A DNA stretch of 62,915 nt, counting the filler, from Basidioascus undulatus (Eukaryota): the NCBI GenBank assembly GCA_000826855.1. It is 6 parts of 6 records of this genome, joined end to end, with 100 filler letters (N's around TTAATTAATTAA, not from the genome) between each part and the next. Parts side by side here need not be neighbours in the genome. Positions count along the whole stretch, not along the records: positions 28,395 to 35,377 come from JTLS01001639.1; 5 more parts are not named here. One strand, written 5' to 3'. Position numbers and translations under genes: made by a program. Below, in pieces: positions 30,781 through 34,900 of this stretch; position 1 is the stretch's first letter; each line of letters starts with the position of its first letter. The notes under the pieces are model-generated. The model worked only from the letters and a program-made list of their open reading frames with translations. It was not told where the DNA came from and ran no database searches.

Positions 30781-31750
30781 TCACCACCCGAACCTATCCC
30801 CACCCGCCTAACATCATCAGCGCCTCTTCCCCCTACAACACGACAAGCAAGACAAGGCCAAACACGCACCGGAGTTGCTCCCTCGTAAACACCGGCGGCT
30901 TCCAGACGAGCTTGCTCGGGTCGATGCGCCTGCGCTGCTTGCGGAGCGCGCGCTCGTGCGCGGCCACGATGCCGTCGTTGAGCGCGAGGATGTGCTGCCC
31001 CTTGTAGGTCTTGAGGAGCTGGAGGGATTGGAGGCTGCGTCGTCGCGGGGGGAGAGGAGGCGGTGAGCGTTGAACGGGAGCGGGGGACGTCGAAGGGGGA
31101 GAGAGAGGAGAGGGAAGGGAAGAGGGACAACGCACGTGTACATAACGTCCGCATGCGTGATCGCCGTCCGCTGCGCGATCTCATCGATGCTCACATCGTC
31201 CTGGGCATTAACCAGCAAATCCACGATGATCTCCCCCCAATACGCGCGGTACCCGAGCAAGCCCAAGTCGCTAAGCGGCTTCTCGGGGCTGCCAAGCTTG
31301 CCCTCGCGCTTGCTAAGCTCGTACGAGAACTCGATGAGGAGCTTCCCGTACCCCATGCGCTGGTGCTGCGGCAGCGTCAAGATGCACGCGACGTTGTACC
31401 CGTCCGCGCTCTCCTTCTCCTTCGAAAAGTAGCCCAGGAGATGGTGCCCGACGGGCGAGCGCGACGTCATGCAGTAGTAGAGAAAGGGATCGACATCGTA
31501 GTAGAGCGTTTTGTGGTCGAGGAAGCATTTCGAGAGGAGGCACAGGTTCCGGCACCACGTCTTTTGGCGCCGCCCGTCGATCTCGAAGAAGGATATCGTG
31601 TCGGACCGGTAGATCTCGTTCCCCGGCGGGTGCGTGAGCGTGCACTTCGAGCGGTGCCGGCGGAGTTGGGTGGGAGAGGCGTAGAAGGAGAGGCAGAACT
31701 CGCAGATGTAGAGCGTTGGGAGGTGCGCGTACTCGGCGGGGTAGGGGGAG
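30781..31750 (-). CDS. ESA1: MYST histone acetyltransferase Esa1/Tip60, 3' half only (exons 31750-31136, 31034-30870, 30793-30781)
   Basis: [116 protein letters not shown] ... [15 protein letters not shown]; chromodomain and MYST N-terminus absent. Confidence 0.93.
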
Positions 31751-31948
31751 CTGCACGAGTGGAGCGAGGGCACAATTAGTATCTCGGTCTTGTGAAAAGA
31801 GAAGCGGAACGGGAACGGGAATACCGAGGATGGAGCGTGGGAATCTGGTCCAACTTGGGATTCGACGATTCCGCCTGCTCGACGCGCTTTCTTGAGCCCC
31901 ATCATCTCATCTCGTTCCTTCATTCTCTTGCTACGCACACGTGCCGAG

Positions 31949-34900
31949 ATGAGCGGCACGGCACTGCGCCCAGCGACCGACTACGCGAGCGCGAGCGCCG
32001 TCAAGCCGCCCTTGCCATCGTTCAGGCGCAAGCACTCCGCCGTCCCAGCCTCCGACCCGTCTTCCCCTCGTGTACCATCCCCCGCGGCCCAGTCCTCCTC
32101 CTCCACAGCAGCAGCCCCACCCCCAGCGCTAGACTCAACACCCGGCGCTGCACCATCAGCGCGCCCTTCCCCGCGGGCGGAGCCGACGTTCCCCCACCCG
32201 CTCGCCTCCGCGTCCCTCGACGTCGACGCGCTCGTGTCCAAGCATGATACGCTCGAGCACATGCCCTCCTTCGACGCGCAGCACGCGTCCGACGCGGAGA
32301 TCTATGCGGAGGTGCAGCGCGTCTGTCCACGCGATGGCGGGCGCCCGCTCGTCGTAAGAAACGTGCATCTCAGGAAGGGGTGGGAGATGGGCGTGGGTGG
32401 GCAGTATGCGGCGTTTGAGGGAGGGGTTTGGGGGACGGAGTGGCAGAAGGAGAAAATGGGAGATGTCGGTGAGAGGTCAATTTATCTTCGGCGAGGGGGA
32501 AACTCGGGAAGTCGAGCACTGGGAGGGCAACGCTGCGGGGGGAAACGGTCACTGACCACTCTCTCACGTCCGCTCGACAGAGGTCAGCCCTCGAAACGTC
32601 CACACTCGGACCGACAAGCTGATGAAGCTCTCCGAGCTGATTGACGAGCTCGAGCGCACCCCGCCAACCTGCGCCGCGGGCGGTAAGTCGCCCTTTCATC
32701 CCCATCACTCACTCCCTCACCCAGGCTGTCCGCCTCACTGCGCCCCTTCTCGTCCTGCAGAGACCCAGCGCCTCTACGGGAAGGACATCCTCGCCCCTGC
32801 CGAGTGGGACGCGCCCCTGAAGGCTGTGCTGCCCCCTGAGATCGTCAATTTGGGGACGGACGACTTGATGCGCGAGATGCCGGCCGAGGTGCGCTGGGTT
32901 CTGAGTGACGAGCGGGGGTTGGGGAAACGCTGAATTGCGGGCTTGGGTTGCGCAGATCAGGACGGAGACGAACTTGTACTACATGGGCATCGGCGACTGC
33001 TTCACGCCGCTGCACAAAGACCTCTGCGCGAGCTACGGGCATGTGCGTCTCTCCCTTCTTCTCTCCCTCAGCCCCCACCCTCCCCTGCTCATCTTATCCT
33101 TCCTCCGTAGAATCTCCTCGTGCACGCCTCCCCCGCCTCCACGTCCTCCTCCATCTGGTTCATGGTGCGCACGGCCGACGCCTCCCGCTGCGCGGACTAC
33201 TTCCGCGACGAGCACGGGACAGACATCGACCTCGAGACGCACGTCGCGACGCCCGGAGAGTGGGCGCGGGCGGGCATCCCCGTCTATGTTGCTGAGCAGA
33301 GGCTCGGGGACTTGATCATTGTTCCGCCGATGTCGTGCCACCAGGTGCGTGCTGCGGCGGGGAACCCTGGGTGGGTGGGGCATGCTGAGGTGGGAAATGG
33401 GTGCGGGTGGAATGGGACAGGTCGTCAATAAGGGTGGGCTCACGGTAAAAATCTCGTGGAGCCGCATGCCGCCCGAGTCGTTCCCGCTCGCGCTGCACAA
33501 CGAACTACCAGTCTACCAGCGGTCCGCCATCCATCCTCTCCTCCCCTCATCTCCCTCCCCTCCCACATTCTTTCTTAACCCCTGCTGCTGCTGCTGCTGC
33601 TGCTCCTGCTCCCACCTCCCCCCCCCCCAGATCATGCCGCGTCGAAGCCTATCGCACGCGCCTGATGATCCACAAGACGGTCGAGCGCCTGATGGCCAAG
33701 TACGAGGCCGCTGCGGCAGCGGCGGCGGGGGAGAACGTCGCGCAATACCTACCCGAGATCAAGCGGACGTTTGCACCCCTTGTGGAGCTATTCAGCGAGA
33801 TGATCGTACAGGAGTGGGACCCCGGCTGGAGGAAGTTGAACATATTGAACGGCAACCCTGAACTCGATGAGGTGCAGGTCGTTTGCGATTGTACGTGGAG
33901 TTTGTTTGAGGGCTTGGAGACGGATCGAGCTGATCGGGCTTCGCTTCGCAGTCTGCGGCGCGGACGGTGCGTATTCTCACGCCCCCATTCCTCGCAGGAT
34001 CTCGCACTGACCTTTGTTCCATTGGAGGGCAGTCTGGCAAAGTTTCTTCGAGTGCCCCTCCTGCGTCGACCCCTCCTCCAGCGCCTACTCGCTCTGTGCG
34101 TCCTGCTACGCGCAAGGTCGGACTTGCGCCTGCGCGGGCGGGGGGAGCTCCATGCGCGCGATGCAGGTCCGCCCGCTCGCGCCCGTCCTCGCGCTCCGTG
34201 ACCGCGCCGCGCAGGTCCTCCTCGATGCGGGCGTTGCGGCGTTCGAGAGCGGGTGGTCGGTCAAGGTGTGGGGGGAGGGGATCGTGTGTGTGTTGGAAGG
34301 GGAGCGGAAGCCGAAGCCGAAGGGGAGACGCTGATCAGTGCGTGTGCGCGGGGAAGCGAGGAGGTGTGTGCGGATAGGAACGTGAGGATCTTTTATGGCG
34401 CCAAGTTGCTCCTCGACGGGAGGAAAGACGGGGTGCGTGCCGCATGCTTGAACGAGAATGAACCTACCCGAAGGACACGCGCTGATGCGAATTGTGCACG
34501 CAGGCAATACGTAAGTGCCGGTACAATCAGGCGTGCAAGGCGTTCGAGTACGGCATGTCGAACGAGCAGCCGTCGGCGAACGTCGTGCGCTGCAAGCCGT
34601 GCCACGCGGGCTTCTGCTTCTGCTGCATCCTTCCGCAGTGCGTGCACCGTCCTCCTTCTCACCCCGCCCCATTCTCCTGCCCCATCTATCATCCCTCGAA
34701 CTCTGACATGACGATCTTGCCTCTTGCAGCTGGAAGCTCACCGCCCCGACCGCGCTCGCGCTCTTCAAGGAGGCGGGCGAGGCGGACGCGCACGACCACC
34801 ACAAGAACACGAACCTCCGCTGGAAGGAGTTTGTGCGCGAGCCCGACGCGGACGCAAAGCTCATCGACGACCCGACGTTCCGCCTCGCCCGCGCCGCGAT

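Follow-up and report, generated by a model that had tools for sequence, protein, structure and literature searches.

The 3' half of ESA1 beside a JmjC-domain gene in Basidioascus undulatus: an ordinary gene on a probably chimeric contig

Introduction

ESA1, which encodes a histone acetyltransferase of the MYST family, is essential in yeasts. How, then, can the gene appear without its 5' half in a stretch of DNA from the fungus Basidioascus undulatus? The stretch analyzed here, called the window, comprises 62,915 bases and consists of six contigs, which are separated by linkers of the form N44-TTAATTAATTAA-N44 and do not represent one molecule. On the minus strand of the fifth contig (28395-35377, 6983 bp) the 3' half of ESA1 starts directly at a splice acceptor, and the place of the 5' half is taken by a spliced gene for a JmjC-domain protein, which starts 200 bp away on the opposite strand and reaches the end of the contig at 35377. 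An initial annotation of the window had pointed out this arrangement and had offered three readings: a JmjC gene nested antisense in a very large ESA1 intron, trans-splicing of two ESA1 halves, or a gene that has been split or misassembled. All its statements about the sequence turned out to hold. The two readings that placed both genes in an unusual shared architecture were not borne out, because an RNA junction shows ESA1 to be whole and the DNA contigs of independent studies break between the two genes. ESA1 is an ordinary, single-copy, expressed gene for an acetyltransferase of the NuA4/Tip60 type, and its present neighborhood very probably results from a chimeric contig, which was joined inside an ESA1 intron and the promoter of the JmjC gene.

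Results

The ESA1 transcript is whole

Three public runs cover the region 31300-32400, X1 from one study as well as X2 and X3 from one sample of a second study. The Logan contigs of all three were aligned to the fifth contig. X3 is listed as "DNA?", and it was treated as RNA solely for its spliced contigs. These contain 11 intron-like joints between 30663 and 35023, each skipping 57-141 nt, and because the joints are missing from the DNA runs (0 in X1 and X2) X3 behaves as RNA. Ten of the 11 joints have the ends GT..AG or CT..AC. Three lie on the ESA1 side, all CT..AC, and eight on the JmjC side, seven of which are GT..AG; the eleventh, 33890>34032, has the ends GT..CA and resolves into two GT..AG introns flanking a micro-exon.

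The missing junction of ESA1 was found in record 17 of X3 (1853 nt, depth 54.6). This contig is identical to the window over 30868-31034 and 31136-31750 (0 differences). The match stops at exactly 31750, and by its own coordinates the contig continues for 794 further letters. The 30 of these letters that adjoin 31750, read in frame on the minus strand, encode ..GAHEVESWYF and are directly joined to SPYP, just as relatives read GRHEVESWYF-SPYP or GAHEVEAWYF-SPYP at this site. With up to 3 mismatches allowed, the same 30 letters occur 0 times in the window. The initial annotation had expected an upstream exon that ends in TGGTA(C/T)TT, and the RNA indeed shows an exon ending in TGGTACTT that is directly joined to CTCCCCC at 31750. 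The mRNA thus joins WYF to SPYP, and ESA1 is expressed and whole in the RNA. The stretch 31751-31835 is contained in a DNA contig of X1 but not in the RNA contig, and therefore it is true intron sequence. X3 contains no RNA over 31751-31902, which argues that there is no alternative first exon in this region.

The 3' half in the DNA is intact and begins at a real acceptor

The orphan acceptor had been described as a branch-point-like CTAAT (31779-31775) and a CAG (31753-31751) on the minus strand, followed by SPYP in phase 2. Both elements are present, and the junction reads ..actaattgtgccctcgctccactcgtgcag|C TCC CCC TAC CCC... The first exon, 31750-31136, contains 204 full codons from SPYP to DVMY. 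Together with the pieces 31034-30870 and 30793-30781 it forms 263 codons, which are free of internal stops and end with EQLRFGW*, so that the exons downstream of the acceptor are as free of lesions as had been claimed. A 66-nt intron in the 3' untranslated region (UTR), about 50 nt beyond the stop codon, is also spliced out in an RNA contig.

Pfam identifies MOZ_SAS (E 1.4e-78) and zf-MYST (E 3.4e-12) in the first exon. The latter match covers only profile positions 20-55 of 55; the domain is therefore cut exactly at the acceptor, and its first 19 positions belong to the missing exon. With 12 full-length basidiomycete Esa1 homologs as tblastn queries, the alignments begin at homolog residues 249-328, and in three of the 12 the alignment is extended upstream at low identity within the same open frame. 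No match to the N-terminal half was found elsewhere in the window (best stray hit E 0.15), in accordance with the earlier statement that it holds no 5' half of the gene, and the N-terminal Tudor-knot or chromo-barrel domain was found in the window neither with Pfam nor with tblastn. An alternative first exon of a truncated ESA1, using GTATTC at 31828 as donor, was considered and rejected: its phase fits, but the frame lacks an ATG after the stop 31904-31902 and the region has no RNA coverage.

The exon belongs to the Esa1/Tip60 branch of the MYST family. Its residues 1-203 align to residues 183-385 of full-length yeast Esa1 (7vvu_P), and the ranking of PDB matches is Esa1 (E 4e-101), Tip60 (7e-87), KAT7 (2e-84), KAT6A (2e-77), KAT8 (7e-75), and Sas3 (3e-60). 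The catalytic core of zf-MYST and MOZ_SAS is therefore present and closer to Esa1/Tip60 than to the other MYST subfamilies. The stretches around the active-site Cys and Glu and the acetyl-CoA loop are identical to yeast Esa1 at these residues, which we take to be Cys304, Glu338, and Q/RxxGxG, respectively. The top relatives in the database are 75-83% identical, carry Tudor-knot, zf-MYST, and MOZ_SAS domains, and many are named ESA1. No protein with more than 83% identity was found among the longer database proteins, and thus they do not include the full-length Esa1 of the species itself.

The DNA contigs of two studies diverge between the two genes

Record 7 of X1 (2006 nt, depth 15) follows the window over 29841-31835, after which 11 letters are unaligned. 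Record 8 of X1 (3706 nt, depth 13.3) matches 31822-35362 only and is preceded by 165 unaligned letters. The match of record 16 of X2 (39,863 nt, depth 42.5) is likewise limited to 31822-35362, and the contig has 34,346 unaligned letters before and 1976 after it. The 14-bp stretch common to the diverging ends, TACCGAGGATGGAG, is unique in the window. The summed depth of the bin 31657-31889 (15.4 in X1, 12.4 in X2) equals the contribution of these records alone. The depth is thus fully explained by records that diverge, and no aligned contig bridges 31822-31835. A break between 31760 and 31950, which the initial annotation had named as the mark of a chimeric contig, is therefore what the contigs of both studies show. 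It lies inside the ESA1 intron, and its other side is about 70-80 bp upstream of the first RNA contig of the JmjC gene.

These contigs also bear on the idea of an ESA1 intron longer than 3.6 kb that hosts the JmjC gene in antisense orientation, with the 5' exons beyond the contig end. The contig in the window has such an order, and the JmjC gene does run off its end. However, record 16 of X2 has no piece of 29841-31821, and therefore, on that contig, the ESA1 3' half is present neither in the 34 kb upstream of the JmjC gene nor in the 2 kb downstream of it. In addition, record 8 of X1 diverges at 31822, and the RNA-supported introns are only 57-109 nt long, well within the range of about 50-150 nt that had been given for the introns of this region. 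Nesting is thus contradicted by the 39.9-kb contig of X2, and we regard it as next to impossible.

The two genes could also be true divergent neighbors, if the assembler had deleted an intervening ESA1 5' half of 1-2 kb; the short common stretch could then have arisen when two short direct repeats were collapsed into one. Record 16 of X2 should in this case run leftward through the 5' half and match 29841-31835, but such a match does not exist. Lacking the ESA1 3' exons, this long contig is incompatible both with nesting and with a simple loss of the 5' half. In none of 80 ESA1 loci of relatives is a relative of the JmjC gene present in the flanks, which is weak evidence because the relatives are distant. 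Taken together, a deletion between true neighbors is extremely unlikely.

A truncated duplicate, with an intact ESA1 elsewhere as the source of the RNA, would explain why the fragment has neither a start nor a 5' half. Such a pseudogene is at odds with an RNA contig that is identical to the fragment over the exons and the spliced 3' UTR, with the freedom of the fragment from lesions, and with its single-copy DNA depth. In X1 the ESA1 piece has a depth of 15 and the JmjC piece of 13.3, and this similarity indicates that there is no second ESA1 copy. The probability of a pseudogene is therefore minimal.

The interrupted intron and the gene pair in relatives

A metagenome scan yielded 80 fungal ESA1 loci with 65-82% identity (L001-L080). 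L021 and L023 are truncated at the site of interest, which left 78 loci for evaluation; in the DNA of all 78, SPYP follows WYF without interruption. About half of these loci are on contigs longer than 10 kb, and some of the short contigs may represent transcripts. The relatives hence lack the intron between WYF and SPYP, which looks like a lineage-specific intron in the MYST zinc-finger region. When 28 open frames of the JmjC region were compared with the 80 loci (tblastn, E up to 1e-3), 0 matches were obtained, so that there is no hint of a conserved pairing of ESA1 and JmjC genes.

The JmjC gene

The JmjC gene had been annotated on the opposite strand from 31949 to the contig end, and the start codon, the Pfam domain, and a frame open to 35377 agree with this. 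The Pfam family JmjC (PF02373) scores 29.6 bits on the exon 33111-33344 and 32.5 bits on a longer frame, at a cut-off of 24. The first matches in an atlas lookup were JmjC clusters at 0.94, which was used as a lead only, and the JmjC core exon had 0 matches among the PDB sequences at E up to 1. We take HxD/E...H to be the metal triad of JmjC domains, which are cupin Fe(II)/2-oxoglutarate oxygenases; by eye, ..TPLHKDL.. is found in the exon 32956-33042, and ..SCHQV.. in the final part of the exon 33111-33344.

Nine introns follow from the joints in X3, including the two of 61 and 66 nt that flank the micro-exon. The 14 letters inserted at this joint map to 33952-33965 and are flanked by CAG and GTGCGT. 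A tenth intron, 33522-33630, was taken from the coordinates of record 19 of X3 and restores the frame. Two further introns, 32380-32587 and 34241-34299, are postulated because the open frame requires them. With all twelve introns, 805 codons are open from the ATG to the contig end. A model built from the listed joints alone was discarded because it contained 19 stops, and 4 were still left after the addition of one wrong intron. One RNA contig ends at a GTGGGA donor (32379/32380), and another extends down to 32477 over a stretch that is closed in all three frames. This suggests that the 208-nt intron 32380-32587, for which no joint was seen, is partly retained.

Composition of the contig

Five of the six contigs in the window are about 7.0 kb long, and the adjacency of contigs across the linkers is meaningless. 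For the left part of the fifth contig, 28396-29870, the only coverage comes from short unitigs of 136-546 nt, whose depth is elevated: individually it is 1.3 to 3 times the single-copy value, and in the densest bin the sum is about 8 times that value. This region also shows variant letters, a joint between opposite strands (29565/29885), and skip joints (28698-28912). This part is probably a repeat or a gene family. The chain of unitigs and the opposite-strand joint indicate that the contig was threaded by the assembler through a tangled graph, and its left third may hold further misjoins. A frame of 156 amino acids on the minus strand, 28759-29229, opens with a stretch that by eye resembles a signal peptide. 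The ends 28396 and 35362 coincide with ends of public contigs. The last 15 bases, 35363-35377, are matched by neither record 8 of X1 nor record 16 of X2, which both stop matching at 35362; as the X2 record continues beyond this position, the contig departs from the public DNA at this end, too. The features are compiled in Table 1.

Table 1. Coordinates of the features in the B. undulatus window
Feature	Position	Strand	Evidence and remarks
ESA1 3' UTR intron, 66 nt	30664..30729	-	X3 joint 30663>30730, CT..AC
ESA1 last coding piece	30781..30793	-	..FGW and stop TGA 30783-30781
ESA1 intron, 76 nt	30794..30869	-	X3 joint 30791>30868 (cut +2), CT..AC; sequence
ESA1 exon	30870..31034	-	X3 record 17, tblastn, translation
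ESA1 intron, 101 nt	31035..31135	-	X3 joint 31034>31136, CT..AC
ESA1 exon	31136..31750	-	Phase 2 start (F)SPYP, end DVMYT; C-terminal part of zf-MYST and most of MOZ_SAS; Pfam, PDB, X3 record 17 with 0 differences
ESA1 intron, 3' part	31751..31835	-	In DNA contig X1 record 7; absent from RNA contig X3 record 17
Apparent misjoin	31822..31835		14-bp stretch common to the ends of two otherwise diverging DNA contigs
JmjC-domain gene	31903..35377	+	RNA start 31903, ATG 31949, 13 exons, 805 codons open to contig end; X3 records 18-20, 8 joints, Pfam
JmjC core	exons 32956-33042 and 33111-33344	+	
JmjC micro-exon, 15 nt	33952..33966	+	X3 joint 33890>34032 with 14 letters between
Contigs	1-7007, 7108-14109, 14210-21209, 21310-28294, 28395-35377, 35478-62915		
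Linkers	7008-7107, 14110-14209, 21210-21309, 28295-28394, 35378-35477		

Discussion

The junction in the mRNA and the break in the DNA contigs are direct observations, as is the lack of a 5' half in the window. They support the third reading of the initial annotation, a split or misassembled gene, in the form of a misassembly. The 6983-bp contig would be a chimera of two loci with the join at or within 31822-31835. Its left part would comprise the last three coding exons of ESA1 plus 85 nt or more of the intron before them, and its right part the promoter and the body of an unrelated JmjC gene, joined through the 14-bp common stretch. The ESA1 5' exons would be located on DNA outside of the window, presumably in cis and directly upstream, and ordinary cis-splicing would most likely remove the intron that separates WYF from SPYP. 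We infer that the join was made by the assembler.

Several points weigh against this explanation. Logan contigs can show the presence of a sequence but not its absence, and a rare or strain-specific junction could be dropped. A DNA contig with ..TCGTGGTACTT followed by a GT donor and the remainder of the intron was not seen, and record 7 of X1 already ends 11 letters past the break. The 14-bp common stretch is longer than a chance alignment overhang, and an overlap of this length would also fit a real rearrangement mediated by microhomology or a chimeric library molecule. Each of the diverging records has one mismatch, which is possibly inside the 14 bp. X2 has no depth over 30026-31656, yet 96% of the words sampled from 31300-32400 are present in it; its ESA1 contig was probably filtered out, and thus X2 gives no direct information on the sequence upstream of the ESA1 acceptor.

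Some of these points could be turned into an argument for trans-splicing. A real rearrangement at the 14-bp microhomology would have split ESA1, and the mRNA would be made from two separately transcribed precursors. The contig in the window is itself such an arrangement, the stretch at the join occurs only once in the window, the DNA that bears the donor was not seen, and the RNA contig shows the joined product only and not the route by which it was joined. Beyond this, nothing was found in favor of trans-splicing. Neither X1 nor X2 has a contig over the join, and both continue into other sequence. Moreover, no RNA starts in 31751-31902, where a precursor of the 3' half would need a start of its own. 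To our knowledge, trans-splicing of mRNAs is not an established mechanism in fungi, and ESA1 is an essential gene in yeasts. Trans-splicing is not needed to explain the transcript, and it appears highly unlikely. The same low probability is assigned to the more general case that ESA1 is truly broken in this intron in the assembled strain, and that the mRNA stems either from trans-splicing or from a second haplotype. We therefore keep to the chimeric contig: ESA1 is biologically ordinary here, and its pairing with the JmjC gene is best explained as an assembly artifact.

The case is mainly a matter of quality control, because gene callers would report a truncated Esa1 together with a false divergent pair of ESA1 and a JmjC gene. 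The biological interest is small and restricted to the intron between WYF and SPYP, which was found in none of the 78 relatives examined.

Compared to Esa1 of Saccharomyces cerevisiae and to Tip60/KAT5, the catalytic subunits of NuA4, the copy in the window lacks everything before SPYP, i.e., about 180 residues in the numbering of yeast Esa1 and 250-330 residues in basidiomycete homologs. This is a property of the contig and not of the mRNA. It is the intron at this site by which the gene differs from its 78 evaluable relatives. The likeness to nested genes and to trans-spliced split genes is confined to an acceptor exon that has no donor and another gene upstream. Nested genes have host exons on both sides on one DNA molecule, which is not the case here, and the DNA arrangement that defines either class was seen in neither X1 nor X2. 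In contrast, the locus shares several characteristics with the chimeric contigs of fragmented short-read drafts: two single-copy pieces of the graph are joined at a short common stretch, the join has no support from independent, nearly identical DNA assemblies, the contig ends match public contig ends, and the left part walks through repeat unitigs. Among such contigs, that of ESA1 and the JmjC gene is nothing unusual.

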